Source of the DNA: a virus
Lineage: Duplodnaviria > Caudoviricetes
Virus record (IMG/VR): IMGVR_UViG_3300049170_000045
Coordinates: 1 to 48,866 of that record
Reading direction: 5' to 3' (one strand)
DNA length: 48,866 nt
Within the stretch, counting starts at the first letter, position 1. Every line of letters begins with the position of its first letter. Below, piece after piece: positions 3,895 through 47,009 of this stretch. The notes beneath the pieces are model-generated. The model searched no databases. It had not been told where the DNA came from and saw only the letters and a list, made by a program, of their open reading frames with translations. Made by a program: the position numbers and the translations under genes.

Positions 3895-4113
3895 GTGCCA
3901 CCCGCCGACCAACAGCAATGGATCACCGACGCCCTCAGGGCGACCGGCGACCGCATCCGCGTCCGGCGACTGCACGAGAACATGACCCAGGAGAGCCTCG
4001 CCCACCTTGCGGGCATCGACCGGTCGACCCTCCAGCGCATGGAGGCCGGCAAGGAGATGAAGCTCAGCCATCTCCTTCGAGTCGCGCATCCACGTCACTG
4101 ACCTCCTCCACTG
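3895..4113 (+). pseudogene. XRE HTH regulator with a probable C-terminal frameshift
   Basis: MTQESLAHLAGIDRSTLQRMEAG; ends early at VAHPRH*, while the expected tail IHVTDLLH* is in another frame. Confidence 0.6.
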
Positions 4114-5708: not shown

Positions 5709-6608
5709 TCAAGCTCCGCGCTTCTTCGCTGTCACCTTCTTCGCCGGGGTCTTCTTGGCGGTCGTCTTCTTCGCTGTTTTCCTCGGCTTCATCTCGTGCA
5801 CTGTCGCCTCCCCGCCGACCTCGCCGCGGCCCTCCTGCGCACGCTGCACCGACTGCTCCAGCGCGGCCATGAGGTCCACGACCTTCCCGGCCGGCTCCTC
5901 ATCGGGCGCCCGCGGCGGCCGCTTGCCCTCGGCCTTGGCGTGTATGACTTCCTCCAAGGCCGCCGTGTAGCGGTCGGTGGCCCAGTCCTGGCCGGTGATG
6001 TCGTCGACGGTCATGGATTCGATGAGGAGGGTGGCCTGCTGGATCTCTTCTTCGGTCAGGTCCATCGGTGCGGGCGTGATCGAGTCTGGGCTGCGGACCT
6101 CGTCGCCCCACTTCATGGCGTGCAGGATGATGACGTCGTCGCGGACACGTAGGAGGCCGAGGCGTTCGCGACCGTGCCAGGCGAACTTGGCGATGGCGAC
6201 CTTGCTGTTGCGGGCGAGGGCTTTGCGGAGCAGCGTGTAGGGCTTAGCGGATACCTGGCCGTCGCCCTGGAGGTAGTAGCCGTCGCTGATCCGCACGGGG
6301 TCGATCGACTCGGCGGGGACGAACGCAACGATCTCGATCGCCTTCGCGGTGGGGAGCGGTATGTCGTCCAGCTCCTGGTCGGCGATGGCGACGACCGTGT
6401 CCTTGTTGACCTCGTAGCCCTTGCCGATCTCCGCGTTCGTGACTTCGCGGTCTTCCAGCTCGCAGATCTTCTTGGTGCGGACTCGGCCCATGTCCTCCAG
6501 GTGGTACTGGTGGAAGCGGATCGAGTGGTTCTCGGTCGCGGGGAGCACTTTGATCGGGATGGTGACCAGGCCGAAGCTGATGGCGCCGGACCAGACGGGG
6601 CGGGGCAT
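5709..6608 (-). CDS. ku: Ku DNA end-binding protein (NHEJ)
   Basis: MPRPVWSGAISFGLVTIPIK N-terminus, KGYE, VVDLMAALEQS, basic AKK-rich tail. Confidence 0.95.
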   Translation of the reverse strand: MPRPVWSGAISFGLVTIPIKVLPATENHSIRFHQYHLEDMGRVRTKKICELEDREVTNAEIGKGYEVNKDTVVAIADQELDDIPLPTAKAIEIVAFVPAESIDPVRISDGYYLQGDGQVSAKPYTLLRKALARNSKVAIAKFAWHGRERLGLLRVRDDVIILHAMKWGDEVRSPDSITPAPMDLTEEEIQQATLLIESMTVDDITGQDWATDRYTAALEEVIHAKAEGKRPPRAPDEEPAGKVVDLMAALEQSVQRAQEGRGEVGGEATVHEMKPRKTAKKTTAKKTPAKKVTAKKRGA

Positions 6609-21714: not shown

Positions 21715-22463
21715 CTACTGGGCGCCCCCGTTGATCAACTGGAAGAGAGTGACGGCCTGCTCATTGCTGAGCTCCTGCTTGCCCCTAATGCCCTTTGCGC
21801 CGGGACGCCGGATCGGGTCAGGGGGATGCTGCTTCCGGCTGGAGTGGGTGGAGGCGTAGTAGTGAGCGAGCTGCCCCACTCGGTCGGCGAGCAGCGCAAG
21901 GATCTGCTCGGTCTGCGACCAGCGGCCCTTCTCCGGCTCGCCCTTCCTGGCCTGCTCGGCGAGCTCCTCATCCGTGAGCTCGTTACGGAGCGCCGTCATC
22001 GTGTGAGATTCCGGCGGCAGGTGCTGGATCAGCACCCGCAGCCACGACCACGTGCGGTGACCGGACAGAACATCGGTGATGTCGTAACCGCGGTCGATCA
22101 GATCGGCTCTTACCGCCTCCGCGTGCCCCTGCCAGAGCGCGAAGACCCACTGGACTTTCCCAGGTCGTCGCCGCCAGCACGGGCAGCAGCCTCCGCGAAG
22201 TGGCCGATGGCGTCCTGGTCAGGGTCGAGATCCTCATAGACCTCGATGTCCTCTTCGTGCAGCACGAGTTCCATGAAACCGTCGATGTCGCCCTGGCGCA
22301 GGCAGCGCAGCGCTGAGGCCCGCCACCGGTTGGCCGGCAGGGCGCGAACGTCCTTGGTGACGCCGTCGTATCCGGCCAGTGGCACGGTGACGTAGTCGTC
22401 GCCGACCTCGGCCTCCGTCTCCTGAGCGCGGGCGGCGTCAAGTTCCTTCTTCGTGGTGGACAT
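21715..22463 (-). CDS. Tail assembly chaperone, long form via -1 frameshift
   Basis: G-GGA-AAG at 22161-22155; the -1 frame is open (VQWVFALWQGH...) into ORF 21715..22035. Confidence 0.85.
22110..22463 (-). CDS. Tail assembly chaperone, short form
   Basis: Between the major tail and tape measure genes; ends DLGKSSGS... Confidence 0.88.
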   Translation of the reverse strand: MSTTKKELDAARAQETEAEVGDDYVTVPLAGYDGVTKDVRALPANRWRASALRCLRQGDIDGFMELVLHEEDIEVYEDLDPDQDAIGHFAEAAARAGGDDLGKSSGSSRSGRGTRRR

Positions 22464-23136: not shown

Positions 23137-23206
23137 GAGATGTCTCCAGACATGGAAGAGCCCGCGCACGGGCGGGGAAAGGGTCCGGCGCGGGCCCGAA
23201 AGCCGG

Positions 23207-25065: not shown

Positions 25066-26067
25066 CTAGGCCAGGGCCTCCACGGCGTCACACCAGGTGG
25101 CCAGTTCGGCGGTCGGATCCAGCTCGGTAGACCGGGCTCTGGCCCGCTTCGACGCCAGCCGGTACTCGGCAGACGTGAGCAGCTTGCGCAGTACCGCCTC
25201 ATAGCCGTCCAGGTCATTACGGTCGACGAAGACGCCCGCCTCCCCCAGCGACTCGCACAGACCAGGCGTCGGGTGAGCGACGACGGGGATGCCGGATGCG
25301 AGCGCCTCACAGCCCACGCGCCCCCACGACTCGTAGGACGATGGCATGAGCAGCACCTTCGTGCGGCCGTACACCTGCTCCCGCATCTGCTGCCCGTCCA
25401 CATGCTCCAGGACTTCGACGTTCGGCAGAACGGGGAGGATCTGCTCACCGTAGGCGCCGCGCACCGCGAGGAACTGCTGATCCGGCATCCGGCGGGCCAA
25501 GACCTCCAGGACCCGGCCACCCTTCTCCACATTGCAGTTGATCAGCGTGATGGCCTTGCCCGGCTTCGTCGCGTACTCGCCGGCGAACACCGGTGGACGC
25601 ACGACCAGTTCCTCACCCGGCCGCACGCTCTTCGGGTACTCGGCGAAGAAGAGCTCTGCCTCCGCCTGCATCCACTGCGAGTTGTAGACCGCGAGCGACG
25701 TGCCGCCCGCCGCCATATCCCTGAAGCTTTGGCGGTGCGTGTTGTGACAGACCACCACCATCGGGCGCCCATACCCGCGAGCCAGTGACGCCGTGGACGG
25801 CACGCACTCCAGATGCGACAGCAGGACATCCGCCCGCCGCACCGCCGTCGGAAAGTCCAGGCGGGCCTCCAGCGGCACGACCTGGATGCCCCGGTAGTCG
25901 TAGGGCTCAGAGGCTTTTCCGTACCGGGACAGCCACACCTGTACGTCGTGACCGCGCTCCACCAGCGGGCGCAGCATCGACACGAGCATGTGCTCGGCCC
26001 CCGCGTTGTGCTGCGGCGGCATCAAATGCACGCGGGCCACGATCCGCAGCAGCGCGGCCCCACCCAT
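25066..26067 (-). CDS. GT-B (GT4-like) glycosyltransferase
   Basis: AGAE, KGG, LLMPSSYESWGRVGCEALASGIPVV (E-x7-E); TGATG overlap with the capsid stop. Confidence 0.92.
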   Translation of the reverse strand: MGGAALLRIVARVHLMPPQHNAGAEHMLVSMLRPLVERGHDVQVWLSRYGKASEPYDYRGIQVVPLEARLDFPTAVRRADVLLSHLECVPSTASLARGYGRPMVVVCHNTHRQSFRDMAAGGTSLAVYNSQWMQAEAELFFAEYPKSVRPGEELVVRPPVFAGEYATKPGKAITLINCNVEKGGRVLEVLARRMPDQQFLAVRGAYGEQILPVLPNVEVLEHVDGQQMREQVYGRTKVLLMPSSYESWGRVGCEALASGIPVVAHPTPGLCESLGEAGVFVDRNDLDGYEAVLRKLLTSAEYRLASKRARARSTELDPTAELATWCDAVEALA

Positions 26068-27689: not shown

Positions 27690-28502
27690 TTACAGAGCGG
27701 GCATGTGCCCGTGCTCAATGAGCGCCCGCCGGAAGCGGGACAGTTGATCGCCCGAGTGCGGCGCGGCGAACTCCTTGTACAGCCGCTCCCACTCGCGCGC
27801 GTGATCGGACAGCTCGAAACGCTGTCCTCGGAACACCGGAACGATCCCGCAGTGGCAGTTGTCGTGGAACTTCACGACGCTCGCGTCTCCGGAGAACTTG
27901 CTGTCGATGTCGCGTCCAGCAGACCCGGCGTCCTTGTATCGCATCCCCCGGGTCGCCATGAGCTTGCAGAACGCACACGCGGCCAGGGCCGCCACTCGCG
28001 CGTATCCGAGGGCCTCACGGTCCCGCCGCACCGCCTCCCGGGCGGTACCTCGGCCCTGATCGGCGACAAGCTTCTGGACGACGGCCTCGGCCTTCTTCTC
28101 CGCCTGCACGAGCCTCACATCGAGTGGCTCGCGCTGAGCGTCCGTGGTTCGCGGATCCTCCGGATCCCGATCCCACAAGTCCTTCGTCGCCCACCGCAGC
28201 GAGGCATCGGCCTGCTCGCCAGGCGGCGGGTCCAGCAGCGGCACCGTGAAGCGGCCCGTCACCCGGGCCGCCACCCGCTGGGCGTCGTAGTAGTCAGCCG
28301 CCAGCGACGCGGAGGCGTCCCCGTACTGGCCGACCAGCGCGCGCACGGCAGCAATCCAGTCCGGCACCGACTCCTGCAGCCGCGACGGAATGATCAATCG
28401 CCGGAAGCCACGCATATCTCGCACCAGTAGCCGAGTCAGAGCCGACTGGGCCCGACGCTGCCGGGCCGCCGACTCGTCACCGTCAGAGACCGCCGTCGTC
28501 AT
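27690..28502 (-). CDS. MuF-like minor head protein
   Basis: YARV...CAFCKLMATRG...FHDNCHCGIVPV. Confidence 0.8.
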   Translation of the reverse strand: MTTAVSDGDESAARQRRAQSALTRLLVRDMRGFRRLIIPSRLQESVPDWIAAVRALVGQYGDASASLAADYYDAQRVAARVTGRFTVPLLDPPPGEQADASLRWATKDLWDRDPEDPRTTDAQREPLDVRLVQAEKKAEAVVQKLVADQGRGTAREAVRRDREALGYARVAALAACAFCKLMATRGMRYKDAGSAGRDIDSKFSGDASVVKFHDNCHCGIVPVFRGQRFELSDHAREWERLYKEFAAPHSGDQLSRFRRALIEHGHMPAL

Positions 28503-29886
28503 CAGGTGCCTCCGGCGCCCGACCGCCGTCCGCCTGCGTCAACCGCTCCAGGAGCTGCTTGCCCCGAGCCCGGCGGCGCTCGGCATCCGCTCGCCGGCGC
28601 TGGTCTTCCGACAGGCCGACCAGCTCCAGGACGACATCGGAGTCCGGTGCCAGAATCTGCGCCTGCACCAACTTCACCGCGGCGTCGGTCTGCGCCGCGA
28701 CGGTCGGAGTCGCCGGATTACGCCAGACGCATTCGATACGCCGCGACCTGTCCGGCGGTTCGCCGTCGCGGAACCAGAGCGCGAGCCGCATCGCATCGCG
28801 GTGCGTCGCCGAGAAGCGCCTGATGCGCCGTTCCGCCTTCTTGATCTGCCCGTTGTCCGCGAAGCGGATCGCATCCGCGCTCGCAGGGTTGTCGCTCGTA
28901 TAGCCGAGCACGTGAGGAGCCACCGACAGCTGCGACGCCATGATCCGGGCGTACAGGTCGATGATCTTCGTCTGGCCGGACGGGTCATGCGCGGCGAACT
29001 GCCCCACCGTGGGCACTTCCCCGTTCTCGTCCCGCTCCAGTGCCAGCACCCGGCCGATGTAGGTCTCCCAAGCCGACTTGGCGTTGCCCTCGGCGTCCTG
29101 GAAGGCACTCTCCGACACCCCGAGGATGTACCGCTGCGGCGCCTGGAAGAACTCGGCACCCACCTCGATACCCATTAGGCGCCGACAAGCCGCATCCGTG
29201 ATGGACATGACCTCAGGCGTGATCTCCGACTTGCCGATGCGGTCCGCGGTGCGCTGACGGTTCGCCATCCGCAGCACCGGCACCATGCCCAGGTTGTGGA
29301 TATCCCGGTCAAAGACCTCCCAGCCGCCACGCGCTTCGGCGGCGTACACGGTTTGGTCTGGTAGGTACAGGGTGACGATCCGTACCTCGTCCTCGACCGA
29401 CTCGCGCAGAGCCGCCGTCGCCAAACGAAGCCGGGCATCCCAGAACATCGTCATGTCCAACGGCGACTCGAACGTGATCAACGGCGGATCGCCCGCCTCG
29501 CCCGAGCCGACCGACACGTACTCACGGCCATAAGTCAGAGCGTCCAGATGCGCCAGACTCGCCTCGTCATACAGATCGTTCGACTCGGCGATCTCCTCCA
29601 GATCGGACGAGTCCGAGCCATCCGCCCAGCGGAACGCCTCCAGATCCAGGCGCTGCTCCAGCGACTCGACACCGATACGCGGCCAGCCAATCACCGTATG
29701 GAGGCCCTTGAGCTGTGGCGGAATCGAGATCCCCAGGTCACGGACGAGCTGCTCACCGTTGAAGTACGCGTCCAAGAGCTCCAGCTTGAACCGCTGCTCC
29801 AGCAGGTCCGTCCGCAGTGCCGTAAGCAGTTGCGTCTCGTCGCCCGACAGCGACAGAAGCGGCAGCTCGGGGATGGTCGCAGTCAT
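28483..29886 (-). CDS. Portal protein (SPP1 gp6-like)
   Basis: GWPRIGVESLEQRL, GKSEIT, AEFFQAPQR, NPASADAI. Confidence 0.92.
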   Translation of the reverse strand: MTATIPELPLLSLSGDETQLLTALRTDLLEQRFKLELLDAYFNGEQLVRDLGISIPPQLKGLHTVIGWPRIGVESLEQRLDLEAFRWADGSDSSDLEEIAESNDLYDEASLAHLDALTYGREYVSVGSGEAGDPPLITFESPLDMTMFWDARLRLATAALRESVEDEVRIVTLYLPDQTVYAAEARGGWEVFDRDIHNLGMVPVLRMANRQRTADRIGKSEITPEVMSITDAACRRLMGIEVGAEFFQAPQRYILGVSESAFQDAEGNAKSAWETYIGRVLALERDENGEVPTVGQFAAHDPSGQTKIIDLYARIMASQLSVAPHVLGYTSDNPASADAIRFADNGQIKKAERRIRRFSATHRDAMRLALWFRDGEPPDRSRRIECVWRNPATPTVAAQTDAAVKLVQAQILAPDSDVVLELVGLSEDQRRRADAERRRARGKQLLERLTQADGGRAPEAPDDDGGL

Positions 29887-31516
29887 CGAAGCACCACCAC
29901 CCTCCCGGAGCGCGTCTTCTTCTTGCCCAGCCCCTTGGCCAGCGCGTCCACACGGCACTGCCAGGCGAGCACAGCCGCCACCGCAGCGTCGATCTTGCGA
30001 GGCGACTCCGGATGCTCCTTGGCGATCTGGATCCCGGAGCGTGATTCACGGCGCCGGGCATTCAGGATGTGCCTCGTCAGCACGCTCGATCCGTCATGCG
30101 TCAACTCACCGTCGACCACCGACGACCGGAACTTCTCCAGCGCCCGCACGATCAGGTTCGACCGGCCGCCCGTCATCCACCACTCGATCGGATGCTGAGT
30201 CGTCGCCTTTACCTTCAGCCGGCGCCCATGCCTGGCCTCCCATGTGGCAACGTGCGACTCCCACTTCGCGGGGTCCGCGTACATCCCCACCACCCGGTAG
30301 GCCTTGAACGCGTCCTCCACTGCGGCCAGCACCTCCACCGTCGGCACCTGCCAGTCCACACCGAACGGGCCGTCCGGTTGCTCCCAGCAACCCAGCAGGA
30401 ACAGGTGCCCATCGCTCACCCGGCAACCAACGAACGCCGTCGCATCCGTCACCCCGCGCGAACGACGGCGAGATCCGTCGAAGCCGAGCACGATCTCCTC
30501 ACCATCGCTCACCACCTTCTCGGCCGCCGCTACACCAGCCCACTCCAGCTGCGAAATCCACGAGTCCGAAGCGTGAGTGATCTGGTTGAGATAGAAACGC
30601 CTGGCGTCCTGCGGATGGGTCGCCGGATCCCACACCTCCGCAGCGATGCGCTCCAGATCCACCCAGCCGCCGGCCACATCAGCAGAGTCGCCGTACACGT
30701 ACCGCAAGCCCGCCAGCAGCGACTCGCGGTCCGCCATGTCCGTTCCGGCATCCGCCTCGCGGTGGTCGTACAGCAGGCCATCATCCTTAGCCCGGCCCTC
30801 GGCGATCCGCTTCCAGTACTCCGCCGAGTCCTCCGCCACGCTGCCCTCGCCAGGAAGGTAAGCGTTCGGCGACTCGATCGAGCTGCCGTTCGTCTTGCCG
30901 AGGTTCCGGCGCAACGTGGCGGCCAGCTTCACGCCCCCGTTCGACGGCCGCCACTCCTCCGTCTGGTCCAGCACACAGAACACGGGCCTGTTGCCCTCAC
31001 GGGACGTAGCCGCCGACGTCACGAACTCGATCCGCCCCTTCGGCAGGTTCACGAACGTATCCAGCGGCTCCAGGCCCGGATACTCGTCGACCGCTGGCCC
31101 CTCGCGGAGCATCTCCAGCAACGGCGCCCACGCATTCCGCGTCTGATCCTCACTCACCGCCGCCAGCTGCACCCACGGCGTTCGCAGGTCTCCCCACGGA
31201 CGCCCGACGGGCTCGCCGTCTGCATCCCAGCCGTCCGGGACAACCGGGGCCAGCGCCTCAGCGCAAGCGATGGCGGCGAGCACCGGGCTTTTCCCCAGCC
31301 CTTCGGGCGGGACAGCACCCCGCGCCGATACCTCCTCCTGCCCGTGCGCGGATCGATCGCATAGAAGTTCAGGATGAACTGCGCCTGCTCCCGCGTCAGC
31401 ACGAGCGGCTCGAAGTCCGTGCGGTCTGGAGCGGCAAGCATCTCGCCCATCCAGTCCAGAACCGCGTAGCCGAGCGTTGGCAACTCTCCCGGATAGCTAG
31501 GACCCCGCCACGGCAT
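29883..31516 (-). CDS. terL: Terminase large subunit, needs a -1 frameshift at 31295-31289
   Basis: 76 codons ending RPKGWGK, then SPVLAAI... in the -1 frame; Walker B VLDQTE; nuclease LGFDGS...DAT, KIDAAVA. Confidence 0.9.
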
Positions 31517-31976
31517 CGCCACCCCCAGGGAGAACCTTGAGATCCGCGTACCGCTGCTTCGACGAGCCGGCGGAAGAGCGCTTCGAGTCCGCCTCGTCGG
31601 CCTGGGCGAACTGCATCCGCAGCCGGGCCCGGTCCTCCGGGGTGGCGCCGAACTTGGCGACCCGCAACCGCAACTCGGCCGCTGCGGACATCTCCCCCGA
31701 CCACAGCCGGGCGTGAACCACGGCCGTGTCGAGCAGGAAGTCCCAGTCGGTCGATGAGAAGTGCTCCGCCTGAGGCGACGCCTTCCACATCTCCCACCAG
31801 TCCAGCGTGCGGGCCGGCCACGAGTGCTCAACCAACTCGCCGTCTTTCATCACCTGGAGCGTGGGCAGCTCGGGGGGTTCGGCCTGCTCGAAGCGCAGCA
31901 GGGTCTGCGGGACCGGATCCTTGTTGGCCCTCGCCCGGCGGGCTGAGTCCTTGGGCTGCGGTCCACGGCCAGCCAT
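31497..31976 (-). CDS. terS: Terminase small subunit
   Basis: MAGRGPQPK, WWEMW..SPQA, ELRLRVAKFGATPEDRARLR. Confidence 0.88.
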   Translation of the reverse strand: MAGRGPQPKDSARRARANKDPVPQTLLRFEQAEPPELPTLQVMKDGELVEHSWPARTLDWWEMWKASPQAEHFSSTDWDFLLDTAVVHARLWSGEMSAAAELRLRVAKFGATPEDRARLRMQFAQADEADSKRSSAGSSKQRYADLKVLPGGGDAVAGS

Positions 31977-31999
31977 GGCGACCACCACCCTTCAAGATC

Positions 32000-32082
32000 C
32001 AAAGTCCCCAGTCCCGTAGCCACAGACGCCGCGTATACGGCTCCGATCCCTGGAGATCGCGGGGAGGGGGTATCCCCCCGGG
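32000..32082 (-). other. Candidate cos (cohesive end) region
   Basis: Non-coding gap between the HNH cluster and terS containing GGGGGGATACCCCCTCCCC then CGGAGCCGTAT. Confidence 0.45.
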
Positions 32083-32286
32083 TCAGCCGCACCAACGTCC
32101 GAAGTCGATCTCCTCTGTCTTGATCGCAGCGGCTGCGAGGGCTCGCGCGCGTGGATCTTGAGACGTCGCAGCGATGACCTTGAGCACGTCGCAGTGAAGA
32201 GCGTCTTCGAGTCCATGAGCTCGCTCGTCATCGGTCACGACTTTGGCGATCTCTTTGACACGGTCTTGTACGAGGGAGACGTCCAT
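32083..32286 (-). CDS. Small hypothetical phage protein
   Basis: GGAGG RBS; DDERAHGLEDAL...FGRWC. Confidence 0.7.
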   Translation of the reverse strand: MDVSLVQDRVKEIAKVVTDDERAHGLEDALHCDVLKVIAATSQDPRARALAAAAIKTEEIDFGRWCG

Positions 32287-32305
32287 ATCTGCCTCCCTCT
32301 GCGCC

Positions 32306-32500
32306 CTACCGCCTGCGCCTGCCGGCGTTGCCCCTGCTTCCCGTCGCCACGCCCGTGCTGCGTATGTGGAGGAGCTGGCGTGTGCACCTGACCCAGTCGC
32401 CGGGTGTGCCCCATCGGATGCGGCTTGCTCCAGCTCCGCTGGACCAGTACCTGCGCAGCGTGGAGGCGTTGCCTCGGCTTCCTCGTCCTCTGCTGGCCAC
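32306..32500 (-). CDS. Small basic protein (YW...IRWGTPGD..RC)
   Basis: GAGGAG RBS, GTG 32500. Confidence 0.55.
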   Translation of the reverse strand: MASRGRGSRGNASTLRRYWSSGAGASRIRWGTPGDWVRCTRQLLHIRSTGVATGSRGNAGRRRR

Positions 32501-32505
32501 GTGGA

Positions 32506-32700
32506 TCACTCCTCGGGCTGCGTGTCCTCAGGGTCGACGCGGGTGATGGTGGCGCCCGTCTGTGCGGGTACGGCGATGCAGGCTCCGTGCTGGTCGGAGA
32601 GGACTGCCCAGCCATGGTCGATGGCGAGGCTGAGGTGCTCGTCCTCGACGAGTACATCCTCGCCTTGCCCCTTCGGATACTGGATCAAGAAGGTGGGCAC
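32506..32700 (-). CDS. Small hypothetical protein
   Basis: GAGGTG RBS; in operon. Confidence 0.6.
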   Translation of the reverse strand: MPTFLIQYPKGQGEDVLVEDEHLSLAIDHGWAVLSDQHGACIAVPAQTGATITRVDPEDTQPEE

Positions 32701-32704
32701 GTGC

Positions 32705-32998
32705 TCACCTCAGTCCGGGATGCTGCTCGGGCGGACGCTGCCGCGTGGGCCGGCTTGCCGCCTTTGCAGCGGCTGCTCCTTCGCGGGCGCTCTTCTGGTC
32801 GTGGCACGGCCCGCACACGCCTTGCAACCCGGTGTCGCTGTGGTCGTCGGTCTTGGCCACGATGTGGTCGCAGTGGGTCGAGGGTCGCACGCCGCACAGC
32901 TTGCAGATCGGGTCGCGTTCGAGGATGCGGGCCCGGATCTTCGCCCAGCCGGACGGCAGCCGTGCCTTGCGGTCCGAGCCCTGCCAACCGCCGCTCAT
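32705..32998 (-). CDS. Packaging-associated HNH endonuclease
   Basis: ILERDPICKLC...CDHIV...LQGVCGPCHDQKS; upstream of terS. Confidence 0.9.
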   Translation of the reverse strand: MSGGWQGSDRKARLPSGWAKIRARILERDPICKLCGVRPSTHCDHIVAKTDDHSDTGLQGVCGPCHDQKSAREGAAAAKAASRPTRQRPPEQHPGLR

Positions 32999-33207
32999 GG
33001 CTGATTAGCAGGGATCTGAACGGTCTCTTCGAAGATCAGCACGCCCCGGGCTCCGAGATGCTCGCGCATCCCCTCCCAGTCGTTGGGCTTCATGATCAGC
33101 TCCCCGTCAGGACCGGTCTCGGCTTCGTCGATCACGAGAACCCATGGCGTCACCATGTCGTCGCCGCGGTGTTCGGTGGGGAGTTCGAGTATCTGCAAGC
33201 GGGCCAT
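32995..33207 (-). CDS. Small hypothetical protein
   Basis: ATGA overlap with the HNH gene; MARLQILELP...PWVLVID. Confidence 0.65.
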   Translation of the reverse strand: MARLQILELPTEHRGDDMVTPWVLVIDEAETGPDGELIMKPNDWEGMREHLGARGVLIFEETVQIPANQP

Positions 33208-33234
33208 GGGCGCGGGCCTTCCGTGTCGTAGCGG

Positions 33235-33777
33235 TCAGGTGCGACGGCTCCACCACCACACGCCGAGCGTTTCGCCCCGCATCGACTGGACCTTCCCGCC
33301 GAGTTCGGCGAGGACGGAGTCCATGTCCTCGGCATCCCAGTGGTGGACGTGCTCCTCGTGCGGGTTGCCGTCGACTTCGCCCTGTGGCGCTTCGACGATC
33401 GGCAGCGAGACGAGCATGTTCCACGCCCCGGCAGTCTCGATGGTCTCCAGGAGGTTGACGGCGCTGCCGCGTGGCATGTGCTCCAGGACATCGCCAAGGA
33501 TGACGAGGTCTCGGTGAAAGAGGTGGTCCTCGCTCTCGCGGACGTCTTCGACGTGGATCTCGTCGTACATCTTCCGGGCCTTGGTCGTCTTCAGCCCGTA
33601 CTTGCGGATGTACGGCTTGTGGATCTCGATCGCCGTCCACCACACGCCCTCGTGCACGGGCCTGAACAGGCGCGCATAGGTGCCTTCACCGGGCCCGACG
33701 TCGGTCACCGTGTTCGGTAGGTGGAAGCGGAACCGTTCGAGGGACCAGTCCTTGCCCTCGATGATGCTGGTGGGCAT
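33235..33777 (-). CDS. Class I SAM-dependent methyltransferase
   Basis: VTDVGPGEGTY, AIEI, DLVILGDVLEH. Confidence 0.9.
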   Translation of the reverse strand: MPTSIIEGKDWSLERFRFHLPNTVTDVGPGEGTYARLFRPVHEGVWWTAIEIHKPYIRKYGLKTTKARKMYDEIHVEDVRESEDHLFHRDLVILGDVLEHMPRGSAVNLLETIETAGAWNMLVSLPIVEAPQGEVDGNPHEEHVHHWDAEDMDSVLAELGGKVQSMRGETLGVWWWSRRT

Positions 33778-35735: not shown

Positions 35736-35905
35736 CTGACAGCAGAGAGGTGTCAGAAGGGGGTGTCAGTGGGGTGTCAGCTCGCGCGCGCACGCGCATT
35801 GACCTAAGGCGGGGCGGGGTGTCAGCGGTTCTGACACCCCCGCTGACACCTTGATCCACTGCCGACAGGCGTCAGTCGGGTGTCACCGCAGGTCAGAAGC
35901 GTCAG
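35736..35905. repeat. clt-like array of GGTGTCAG/CTGACACC 8-mers (candidate TraB recognition sites)
   Basis: Perfect copies at 35749, 35762, 35773, 35818, inverted at 35831 and 35843; near matches at 35736, 35868, 35879, 35898; directly 3' of traB. Confidence 0.8.
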
Positions 35906-37908
35906 TCGATGTGGGCCATCGTCGGGTAGAGCAGCCGGTAGGTGCCCGGCTCGTCGGTCTCCTCCAGGTGCCTGCCTTCGTCGGCGAGCTCGGTGAGTGC
36001 CTCCGACAGCCAGGCCCTGGAACGGCCGTAGCGACCCGCCTTACCGTGCGGCTGGAAGTGCCGCGGCCCGACCTTGGTCAGGCCCTGCTCGCGGAACTCG
36101 TCCAGCATCATGTGCAGTTCGGCCTCAGCCTCCGCGCGCGTCTTCCCCTTCTGCGGCTCCGCCGGCTTCCCGAACTGCCACACCTGGTCGGCGGGGACGG
36201 GCTCGAGCGGCTGCTCGGCGTCGACTTCCGGCTCGGGGCCGCCCTCGTCACCCGGCACCAGCGCGTCGATCTCGCGGGCGACCTGACGGTCGAGCAGGGC
36301 CTCCTCCTCTCGCTCCTCGTCGTCCTTGGTCATGACGGTCTCCTTGGTGTCGATGCTGGTCAGGGACTGGCCGGGCAGGTAGATCTTGCGGTTGGCGTAG
36401 GCCTCACCTGCGGCCATGGTCGTGGTGGGCCCGGCGGGGGTAGGCGTGTAGAAGCGCTCCAGGACGGCGCGGATGTCGTCGTCGGTGATCGGGTTCCAGG
36501 TGCGGGCCTTCATGGCGTACCGCTCCTCGTCGACACCGGGCGCGACGAGGTAGTTGTAGCCGGGCTTACGGTTCTCCCACGCTTCCGGGCGGGCGCCGGC
36601 GTCGCGTACATCGTCCGGGAGCGCCATGTCGGCGGTGGTGGAGCCTTTCACGCCGAAGCAGAAGGCCCCGCCGAGCTGTTCACGCACGTCAGTAGGCATG
36701 GACGTCGCCGACGGCCGCTGCTGGCTGACGATGACGCTGCCGCCTGCGGAGCGCAGGGCTTCGACGACGGCTTCAAGTTCGGCGCCGTCCCGGAAGAACT
36801 TCGCGGACTCCTCGATCCACACGATCAGGTAGGGCATGCCCAGCTTGTCGTAGGCCTCCGGCGTCCAGTTCTTGAAGCCGTGACGTCCAAGTTCGTCGGC
36901 GCGGGCTGTGATGACCTGCGGCAGCGCGTCGATCATGGCGTTGCCGCCGGGCATCGTCATCTCCACCCAGTCCAGGTAGGGCAGAAGTGGGCCGAGGGTC
37001 TGCATGCCCTTCGCCGCATCGATCGCCCACACGATGGCGTCACGCCTGGTCAGGGCCTCAATGATGGCCCACGTCATGCCGGTCGACTTGGCGGAGCCGT
37101 TCATGCCGGTCACGGAGAAGTGCGTGGCGTTGCGGCGCGCCTTCTCGTCGGCGGGGAACCAGAACTGCTCAGTCTCCCCGTCCTCATAGATGCCGACCTG
37201 CACCGGCTCTGTGATCGAGGCACCCGGCGCGGACGGGCCCGGGTAGGGGGCACCTTCGGTGAGCATGTCCTTGGGGATGAACACGAACTCGCCCTCGGCG
37301 GCGTTCTCGGGGTCCGGCACGATGCGGATGCTGTTAGGGGAAATTCCCAGCTCACCGGCAATGTTGTTGATCCGGTTGCCGAGGTCAGCGTTGGTCAGCT
37401 CGCCGCCGGCCAGCTTGTAGGCGGCAGTCACCTTGTTCGGCTCGACCTTCGGCTCGCCCTTCAGCGCGGCCTTGGCCTTGCCCAGGGACTTGACCAGCAG
37501 CCCCGTCTCACTGGCAGCCTGCTCGCGCTCGCCGACGTCCGGGTTGACGCGCAGGATCTGCCTCATGTTCCAGCCGCCCGCCGCCACCATCCCGCCGATC
37601 GCCCATGTCGAGGCGAGGAAGGGGTCCAGCGGATCGGTGACAGTCGCGATGACGAGGTAGGACGTGCCGACCGCAGTGGACAAGGTGGCGTGCAGTCGGC
37701 GCGGCTTCGATGTGCCCTCCCCCGCCCACCATGTCGTCGCGGTCAGCACACCCGCCCCCACCGTCAAGGCCGCGCCGGCGAGGGGCGACCCGCCCCACAT
37801 GGCGTGCATGCCGACAGCGGCAGGCATCGAGGCGGCCGTGGCCAGCCATGGGCGCATACGAGGGTGCTTGAGGGCCTTGTAGAGATCAGCCTTAGGGGTG
37901 TCAGCCAC
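35902..37908 (-). CDS. traB: TraB conjugative DNA translocase (FtsK/SpoIIIE-like)
   Basis: N-terminal TMs; Walker A GMNGSAKS; IDAAKG; Walker B IVWIEE; SQQRP; C-terminal wHTH (SRAWLSEALTEL...PGTYRL). Confidence 0.9.
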   Translation of the reverse strand: MADTPKADLYKALKHPRMRPWLATAASMPAAVGMHAMWGGSPLAGAALTVGAGVLTATTWWAGEGTSKPRRLHATLSTAVGTSYLVIATVTDPLDPFLASTWAIGGMVAAGGWNMRQILRVNPDVGEREQAASETGLLVKSLGKAKAALKGEPKVEPNKVTAAYKLAGGELTNADLGNRINNIAGELGISPNSIRIVPDPENAAEGEFVFIPKDMLTEGAPYPGPSAPGASITEPVQVGIYEDGETEQFWFPADEKARRNATHFSVTGMNGSAKSTGMTWAIIEALTRRDAIVWAIDAAKGMQTLGPLLPYLDWVEMTMPGGNAMIDALPQVITARADELGRHGFKNWTPEAYDKLGMPYLIVWIEESAKFFRDGAELEAVVEALRSAGGSVIVSQQRPSATSMPTDVREQLGGAFCFGVKGSTTADMALPDDVRDAGARPEAWENRKPGYNYLVAPGVDEERYAMKARTWNPITDDDIRAVLERFYTPTPAGPTTTMAAGEAYANRKIYLPGQSLTSIDTKETVMTKDDEEREEEALLDRQVAREIDALVPGDEGGPEPEVDAEQPLEPVPADQVWQFGKPAEPQKGKTRAEAEAELHMMLDEFREQGLTKVGPRHFQPHGKAGRYGRSRAWLSEALTELADEGRHLEETDEPGTYRLLYPTMAHID

Positions 37909-45566: not shown

Positions 45567-47009
45567 ATGCCCCCCTGGTCGTCGACTGACGTGGCCAGAG
45601 TGGGGGCTTGATCGGCATGTCGACAAGCGCGCGCACCGGTCGCCGGAGGCGCGTTCCCGGCGCTCGTGGCACCGTCCGCTTCTGTTCGACGGTTTCGCCG
45701 CGGGCTTCGCCTCGATGCCCCCGTCGCCTCTGCCGGTTTCACGGCGGCGCCGCCTTGAGGTGTCGGCCGTTGCATTCCGGCCAGCTTCCGCCCGAGGGGA
45801 CAGTGGAACGAAAAGGGCACCAATGGGACGAGGTGGAATGGTCAGCCCGGGGCAAGGGCCGGTATCTCATCGCCCCAGTAGCAGCTCAACCCAGGGGCCA
45901 GATTTCCCTCGGTTTACTATTCCGCACAGGTCAGAAGCATGGCAGGGGCCACCGTGGCGACCGTGAATACTGCGTCTTTCGCCACGTTCGACGGTTCCAA
46001 ATATTGCCGTGGGGTTTGTGGCTGGTCTTCGGTGGTCGTAGCGTTCGACTGCACGGAGGCAGCACCGATGCCGCCTCGGTTATGCCAACTGGGGTGGCAT
46101 GTCGAAGGGGCTTCCGAAGCGGGGGGCCGGGGGCAAGGATTTGGAGGGTCGACCCGAAGGCCGATCCCAATCCGCGTCGGCCGCCGCACATCTGCAGACC
46201 ACTGAGGAACCCCTAGAAATTTTAGGGGTCACGGTCGGTTGCCTGGTCCAGCGTGGGAGCCCTCGCACGCCGATGCTGCTGGGTGTTTCACCTTCAGCCG
46301 TCAGATCCGTGACCGACTAGGAGGACAGCCATTTTCAGCCAACCTAGAACACACCTGAGGTACATGAGTGAATGCATTTACGCAATAAATCCACCCTCCC
46401 GAATTAGGGAAATGGGAGGTCAGGGTTTTCCCTATAGGGCAGATGGCGCTCTGACCTGCGCTTACGACCCTTATAAATTGCCCCCTGGGTGGCGCTGAAT
46501 ATGATCCATGCCAGATGCTCCCCCTGGTTGAATTGCCATCGCTCCAGCTCGCCCGACTTTCTGACAGTTGGCCAGAAGGTAGACCCCCGCCTCCACAAGA
46601 GGGAACTCATCATGTGCTTAGCGTCGCCATCACACCGGACCGTTACGGGGTGCTCAGCTCCTCCCCTTCCCGTCCCGCGCTTGGGGCTGACCGCCCGTCG
46701 CGGGTGCCGCCTGGCTGGCCTCCGACTCACGTGAGTCGGTGGTGCGAACCAGCCACGTTTGGAGCCCGTTTTGTGCAGATACAGAGCCTAGCCCCTTGGC
46801 TGGTGTGATCCCGTAGCGCAAGAGAGGGTCACGCACGCATGGGAAACCATGCAGGTGACTGCCCACCTGCCGTATTCGTTCGCAGAGGGGCATCTGAGCG
46901 GCGGCTACGGTCCAACAGCAGACTGTGTACACCACGTCCGCGGGAGCCGAATCTGATCGCCTACAGCCTCGGCCGGATCGCATCGCTGTTAGCTTCACCG
47001 GAACACGAA

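Follow-up and report, generated by a model that had tools for sequence, protein, structure and literature searches.

The terL break in the window

The window, that is, the whole stretch of DNA analysed (IMGVR_UViG_3300049170_000045), is a complete virus record of 48,866 nucleotides (nt) with 67.6% G+C, and its gene for the terminase large subunit (TerL) is broken within the Walker A loop. The break lies at a heptamer, G_GGA_AAA, in the X_XXY_YYZ phase of −1 slippery sites, and full-length TerL is very probably made by programmed −1 ribosomal frameshifting there. The elements of the locus, with open reading frames (ORFs) and lengths in amino acids (aa), and the separate frameshift site of the tail genes are as follows.

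31497..31976, minus strand: terminase small subunit (TerS), Pfam PF25673 Terminase_7 (E 7e-33), ATG at 31976
31520..31526, minus strand: putative Shine-Dalgarno-like GGGGGTG before the TerL ATG (31516), from the sequence
31154..31516, minus strand: TerL zero-frame ORF, 76 TerL codons to RPKGWGK and then an out-of-frame tail; residues 13-76 match phrog_9
31289..31295, minus strand: slippery heptamer G_GGA_AAA (X_XXY_YYZ) at Walker A Gly75-Lys76, read from the sequence and invariant in 12/12 genes of the −1 clade described below
29883..31289, minus strand: TerL −1 frame, 468 codons from Ser77, with the remaining ATPase domain and the nuclease (PF20441; PHROG)
28483..29886, minus strand: portal, its ATG overlapping the TerL stop (ATGA); PF05133
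22155..22161, minus strand: tail-assembly-chaperone −1 site G_GGA_AAG, the ordinary frameshift of the window phage; the −1 frame matches tail-assembly-chaperone PHROGs

On the minus strand the junction reads CGC CCG AAG GGC TGG GGA AAA GCC CGG. Zero-frame translation that starts at the ATG (31516) yields RGVLSRPKGWGK, after which homology is lost, and a stop ends the product at 120 aa (RPKGWGK-ARCSPP). The −1 frame runs from SPVLAAI for 468 codons to the stop at 29883, and a −1 slip rebuilds GWGK-SP exactly, with no residue gained or lost, in a protein of 544 aa (76 + 468). Relative to intact homologues the window is short of 1 nt (gap −1 nt). Both TerL halves match PHROG 9, terminase large subunit, and the gene is identified as a terminase by a Walker A ATPase, a C-terminal nuclease and its place between TerS and portal; TerS and TerL overlap by 20 nt. 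An initial annotation made from the sequence alone had described the split at Walker A with G-GGA-AAA at 31295-31289 in slippery phase, which is read directly from the sequence, and had given RPKGWGK-SPVLAAI and a 544-aa TerL as the result of a slip and 120 aa otherwise, with which both translations agree. Its remark on atypical codon choice also held, GGA making up 9.9% of the Gly codons and AAA 8.1% of the Lys codons in 17 window ORFs (AGG is 6% of the Arg codons in window genes), and so did the likeness to the phage's own tail-chaperone site at 22161-22155.

The residues G73-P78 (GWGKSP) are invariant in 19 intact relatives with 53-82% identity to L084, itself an intact relative of the window. 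An AlphaFold model of L084 (mean pLDDT, the per-residue model confidence, 83) has residues 70-75 as a loop that connects strand 65-69 to helix 76-89. Its fold is most similar to that of the HK97 large terminase (E 1.5e-22), and T4 and Sf6 TerL were matched as well. The break would therefore sit in the P-loop, as these residues form a strand-helix loop in an HK97 TerL fold. No sequence relative was found in the PDB.

Conservation of the break among relatives

Relatives were gathered from IMG/VR, GTDB and metagenomes, and 324 loci with both TerL halves, the window included, gave 228 distinct junctions. These comprised 205 intact junctions, 13 of the −1 type, four with TGA-GGN after GWG, three with 5-nt TTA inserts, and one each with an 8-nt TGA insert, a 420-nt in-frame insert and a poor alignment (L153, 36% identity and a 30-nt gap, kept inside the count). 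The Walker A loop was broken in 21/228 junctions, and a stop lay away from the junction in 1/228. Left out before this count were 10/237 loci without a match to the N-part, L157-L163, L260-L262, L265, L268 and L269 (repeats or chance matches), L264, L266 and L267 (no terminase) and duplicates of one junction, including L179, which had two frames in one scan. Pattern scans do yield chance matches, in 1/7 (L157, no terminase) and 3/10 cases. When 401 genomes from the whole class were searched by pattern, the centre genome was the only one returned; a search of 401 genus genomes by protein gave 16 loci, in which both −1 cases repeat L081 and L083.

The initial annotation had looked to close relatives, asking whether the break recurs at the same heptamer or whether an extra base gives one continuous ORF. 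Among the 13 distinct junctions at 88% amino-acid identity or more, window included, the same break at the same heptamer was found in 12, and only L084 carries the extra base and the continuous ORF. The 12 −1 genomes are distinct, with 78-94% nucleotide identity, and come from IMG/VR, isolate genomes and metagenomes. Over their 66 pairs the ratio of nonsynonymous to synonymous substitution rates (dN/dS) was 0.069 before the break and 0.076 after it, at a mean dS of 0.68 and 0.77. For the 27 codons past the site, amino-acid identity was 0.99 in the −1 frame versus 0.70 in the zero frame. No further stop was found in TerL in any of the 12 clade genes, and the TerS and portal matches in the clade loci listed were without stops. 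The zero-frame product is 120 aa long in the window and 103 aa in 11/12 clade genomes. The reading-frame break is real and conserved, and both halves are under selection as one protein. As judged from these sequences, such a conservation pattern is incompatible with a shared artefact or a dead gene. A sequencing error, or an inactivating deletion inherited in defective prophages, had been named as the alternative from the start and has the short homopolymer at the site in its favour, but it is effectively excluded by 12 distinct genomes from three collections, a dS of about 0.7, a dN/dS of about 0.07 and the absence of further TerL stops.

A protein search with the 120-aa product retrieved 37 short proteins, known from protein sequence alone. 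The −1-type tail GK[AV] was present in 17 and an end exactly at GWG in 14, while four were intact at the junction, one was of another kind and one was without the motif.

Candidate signals and competing explanations

Besides the heptamer, two candidate recoding signals were found in the window.

31331..31339, minus strand: consecutive AGG codons (AGGAGGAGG), separated by 35 nt from the heptamer downstream; a possible 5′ signal, from the sequence
31274..31281, minus strand: 5′ arm (GCTCGCCG) of the predicted 3′ stimulatory stem, 7 nt past the heptamer (RNAalifold)
31211..31218, minus strand: 3′ arm (CGGCGAGC) of the predicted stem (RNAalifold; 0 compensatory changes)

GGA AAA is kept in 12/12 clade genes, and in the intact genes GGA is used here for 13/174 Gly codons and AAA for 15/179 Lys codons. 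The predicted helix of 8 base pairs (bp) is complete in 11/12 clade genes and has 7 bp in the other, versus 1/205 intact genes; CTC GCC GCC is found in 12/12 clade genes versus 1/105 intact genes coding L-A-A. Codons 74-82 show the least synonymous variation among 537 codon windows. A 3′ stimulator is likely to be present on this sequence evidence; its shape is unproven, since there is no compensatory change, folds compete and synonymous shuffles were beaten in 1/3 genes. AGGAGG occurs in 12/12 clade genes versus 0/205 intact genes; the AGG pair occupies codons 60-61 of eight genomes and 61-62 of three, and in the window AGG spans codons 60-62. As a conjecture, it may pause trailing ribosomes, as an internal Shine-Dalgarno or through its rare codons, or pair across a hairpin; the hairpin predicted between AGGAGG and the heptamer exceeds that of intact genes only slightly in strength (−10.3 vs −8.5 ± 2.7 kcal/mol). 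No conserved 5′ structure with convincing covariation was found, and Rfam returned one weak chance match only (E 0.056, 11.9 bits vs a gathering score of 55). Two further candidates were set aside: AGGAGG as a start signal was ruled out, as no conserved start codon follows it, and the zero-frame TAG (11/12) was discounted as a signal because the intact L084 has the same GTA codon.

The 12 −1 genes and L084 form one group in the phylogeny (support 98/94). L084 is nested inside the −1 clade at 85/94, and a clade without L084 was not rejected (approximately unbiased test, p-AU 0.23). The intact TerL of L084 (L084:543-2177), which branches within or next to the −1 clade, still has the rare AAA for Lys, and has neither AGGAGG nor the CTC GCC GCC codons. 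L084 is possibly a revertant, or a sister of the −1 clade, and could be used as a natural control. The identical heptamer was also found in L263, which has 49% identity, lies far off in the protein tree and is a single metagenomic contig; it has its own 12-bp hairpin about 7 nt downstream, unlike the clade stem, and no AGGAGG. The TGA and TTA break types occupy at least 4 other parts of the protein tree, and G_GGA_AAR is already present in 15/205 intact genes.

The programmed −1 frameshift claimed by the initial annotation is supported by the conservation, by purifying selection on both halves and by the co-conserved candidate signals. Several observations weigh against it. L084, a member of the clade at 91%, is intact, and among the best matches listed no cultured phage has the −1 allele. 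The 12 clade genomes are related, and the codons common to them are not independent evidence, because the genomes share ancestry. The synonymous dip was not significant in the gene-wide test (p 0.08 and 0.16), and the p of 0.0001 for codons 79-82 belongs to a window picked after the data were seen. The predicted stem has no compensatory pairs and no covariation, only 7/12 genes have the long helix as their best fold when the first 6 nt are kept unpaired, the others forming a shorter local hairpin, and folding energy was better than that of synonymous shuffles in one of three genes (p 0.04, 0.10 and 0.85). The distance of 35-38 nt from AGGAGG to the heptamer is outside the 6-17 nt upstream at which a stimulatory Shine-Dalgarno is proven in E. 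coli, where earlier work also found G_GGA_AAA inefficient (PMC4066793). In favour of the frameshift, the same heptamer is present in insertion sequence (IS) elements known or suspected to frameshift (PMC4066793), and GGGAAAA is reported at the tail-chaperone site of actinophage Bush (PMC11749239).

In the proposed mechanism tRNA-Gly and tRNA-Lys would re-pair from GGA AAA to GGG AAA, and decoding would resume at AGY (Ser77; AGC in the window), rebuilding the exact GWGKSP loop. The stem 7 nt downstream is a likely stimulator of the slip, to which AGGAGG may contribute a pause from upstream. Without a slip, translation would end in a 103-120 aa fragment lacking the Walker A serine and the nuclease, so that tandem −1 slippage would be the sole source of full-length TerL, and the likely outcome is a low, capped TerL output from a start overlapping TerS. 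The allele may have arisen by the loss of one base at W-G-K with a GGA Gly codon, rescued at once, with the helper signals acquired later; such immediate rescue is conceivable because W-G-K with its Gly encoded by GGA already reads G_GGA_AAR.

Dosage control of a nuclease-bearing motor, the purpose first suggested, is the simplest reading and a plausible one, but it has rivals and is held more tentatively than the mechanism, with somewhat less than an even chance. The shares of the purposes are rough and not mutually exclusive. With the mechanism unchanged, the missing base may instead destroy a homing-endonuclease target at Walker A and the frameshift may rescue the gene as a 'savior', which we consider possible but unlikely. 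Such 'savior' recoding after loss of a homing-endonuclease target has reportedly been proposed for T4 gene 60. Two neighbouring positions account for the breaks, one behind K and one behind G, and the two commonest TerL intein sites are one residue apart in Walker A, one of them between Lys and the nucleophile; Walker A inteins also cut intein-less terL DNA (PMC5050341). An intein-like insert of 140 aa is present at K|S in L176, a free HNH gene lies between TerS and TerL in L094 and L097, and in vB_MoxS-R1 an HNH gene directly precedes terL. Against this, none of the 12 window-clade genomes has an insertion between TerS and TerL, HNH genes were counted in 2/18 broken vs 2/187 intact loci with a TerS match, the two broken ones being sister taxa, and synonymous changes could remove the target at no expression cost. 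A little less likely still is a slip that follows host state (supply of tRNA-Lys for AAA or of tRNA-Arg for AGG) and thereby times packaging, or one that keeps TerL too scarce to set off terminase-sensing defences. This would fit the low share of AAA among Lys codons (8%) and of AGG among Arg codons (6%) in window genes, the sensing of terminases by Avs2 and Upx (PMC13601566) and the bldA-dependent TTA carried by related lineages at the same loop, timing by UUA having been proposed for Hau3 (PMC10732093); against host-state control, no TTA codon occurs in 17 window ORFs.

Two readings that dispense with the ribosomal slip appear far less probable. TerL might be made as two polypeptides, the C-terminal part starting at an NTG three codons before Ser77 (31298) or at a GTG at 31283 and joining up with the N-terminal piece; CTG, GTG or TTG is found at the first position in 12/12 and GTG at the second in 11/12, and terL of Gordonia phage Nyceirae is annotated as two genes. 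However, the NTG is forced by the Gly-Trp codons and is mostly CTG (8/12), L001 has no GTG, the invariant GGA AAA is left unexplained, and according to the model the cut would separate the P-loop from its helix, whereas the Nyceirae split is between the ATPase and nuclease domains. Improbable to a slightly greater degree is transcriptional slippage adding one base in the G4-A4 run. An extra G or an extra A there would yield an identical protein, but the runs are only 4 nt, and known sites of transcriptional slippage are usually longer. The exact X_XXY_YYZ phase, and a conserved element 7 nt downstream, where ribosomal stimulators act, also speak for the ribosome.

Published and candidate recoding at the Walker A loop in other phages

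Other breaks were seen at the same loop. In L092, L094, L097 (junction near 3995) and L272, GWG is directly followed by an in-frame TGA and then by another Gly codon (GGT TGA GGN AAG), and L287 (junction near 2722) reads GGT TGA AT GGC AAG. These TGA-type junctions have a predicted 5′ hairpin and take-off and landing codons that match, and are candidates for natural hopping over a stop codon; the 14 database proteins ending exactly at GWG suggest that this type of break is widespread. Inserts of 5 nt starting with TTA are found in L027, L101 and L140 (after GK) and L270 (after GWG), and are candidates for UUA bypassing of the Hau3 type with a shorter gap. In eight TGA or TTA genes the hairpin of the S-R-P-K/R-G-W-G codons was predicted at −13.7 vs −9.1 kcal/mol in intact genes (Mann-Whitney p 0.0008, for related, non-independent sequences). 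The insert of 140 aa between the Walker A Lys and Ser in L176 (L176:2353-3300) is too short for a full homing endonuclease and had no Pfam match; it is intein-like in its position and its His-Asn-Ser end. The free-standing HNH genes between TerS and TerL lie at L094:3081-3746 and L097:3070-3764, the latter apparently split into two ORFs.

UUA-triggered bypassing after KGWG in TerL has been described for Streptomyces phage Hau3, prophage StrepC.1 and an S. catenulae prophage (PMC5009743, PMC10732093), three cases among 100 ter genes, and a reporter gave full-length product in Streptomyces (PMC10732093). Bypassing was seen in E. coli once UUA was replaced by a stop (PMC10732093), which bears on the TGA-type junctions found here. 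Hau3 and the window share the gene, the Walker A loop and the dependence of full-length TerL on recoding, the window break being one codon later, after KGWGK. Hau3-type loci have inserts of 7-10 nt starting with UUA and need a forward hop (PMC10732093), whereas the window clade has a 1-nt deficit, no UUA (0 TTA in both TerL parts), a tandem-slip heptamer and a predicted 3′ stem. A −1 terL frameshift has been speculated for Microbacterium phage vB_MoxS-R1, which is inducible and for which virions were reported on induction (PMC9030533), so that a Walker A break seems compatible with packaging. Its TerL belongs to this family, with 44% identity to L084, and the break is in the same loop, but its junction (L352, MW073100.1, 19700-19740) reads GWG-TAG-C-AAG-TCT, a stop plus one base and 4 extra nt; unlike the window it has no X_XXY_YYZ heptamer, needs a forward hop to give the exact loop, and is a single genome. 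The annotated start of its gp44 seems too late, the frame being open from 19481.

The tail-assembly chaperones (lambda G/GT and actinophage equivalents) use the same heptamer class, with a fusion longer than the zero-frame product as in the window terL, and both products are needed at a set ratio (PMC5009743). The terL shift differs in being early and inside the catalytic motif of an essential enzyme, with a zero-frame tail without sign of selection, and the site is not before the tape measure in a chaperone gene, the phage's chaperone site at 22161 being separate. Transposases of the IS1 and IS3 families obtain a low amount of active fusion enzyme from a heptamer and a 3′ structure, G_GGA_AAA being among the sites (PMC4066793); gene and element are different, and the Shine-Dalgarno is 6-17 nt upstream there, while AGGAGG is 35-38 nt upstream here. 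With TerL1-a/-b inteins, which hit the same loop (PMC5050341), and with T4 gene 60 bypassing, an interruption is repaired during or after translation, and the window terL is without any insert.

In the literature searched, with most subscription journals outside its coverage, no report was found of a conserved heptamer-based −1 frameshift in TerL. The available portions of PMC10885494 do not mention terminase, those of PMC13313380 hold no terminase frameshift and those of PMC3711429 no match for terminase, and the PMC10732093 supplement file, as available, has no match for GGGAAAA or 'slippery'. The statement of the initial annotation that terL is not a textbook recoding site has to be qualified for the loop itself, where Hau3 bypassing is published and a vB_MoxS-R1 −1 shift has been speculated. 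Mechanism class and recoding site are already known; the combination appears to be unpublished.

On present sequences there is about an even chance that recoding has converged on the Walker A loop of actinophage terminase as a hotspot, with independent −1 (at least 2 times), stop-hopping and UUA-bypassing lineages within two codons. Three candidate stop-hopping junction forms were seen at the loop, GGT-TGA-GGN, GGT-TGA-AT-GGC and GGT-TAG-C. The S-R-P-K-G-W-G-K codons would suit both a take-off hairpin and a heptamer, and the window clade would be the −1 solution with a new long-range 5′ AGGAGG, a translational valve on packaging.

The window phage is likely a temperate Streptomyces siphovirus, a host assignment that follows from the named genomes with the closest TerL relatives, which are Streptomyces. 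Its genes include integrase, Ku (5709-6608), capsid and portal, as identified by domain searches, and a 1,610-aa ORF with a peptidase M23 domain is likely the tape measure. TerL codons 541-542 (GTG GTG; 29883-29900, minus strand) are invariant in 12/12 clade genes and likely form the portal's own ribosome-binding site, so that portal need not depend on frameshifted ribosomes. A scan of 29800-33300 gave no match to a sigma-70 promoter or a terminator. A glycosyltransferase gene (25066-26067) lies directly after the capsid gene, a weak methyltransferase match upstream of the packaging module (33235-33777), and a 668-aa protein at 35902-37908 (minus strand) matches phrog_24831, a family of no assigned function, and weakly an FtsK-like ATPase. 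Further GGGAAA[AG] heptamers occur at 46432, 8580 and 3040 (minus strand) and at 23175 and 42673 (plus strand).

To our knowledge, conserved −1 frameshifts in phages are known mainly from tail chaperones. If programmed frameshifting in terL is true, the catalytic loop of an essential enzyme exists only through a slip, with L084 as a ready natural control. Active prophages may then be scored as defective, because gene callers split such terL genes. The Hau3 bypass case would grow into a family of at least 3 recoding modes at one motif, including natural stop-codon hopping, and the question would be opened why phages throttle terminase, be it to set dosage, to sense host state, to evade immunity or to ward off homing nucleases.

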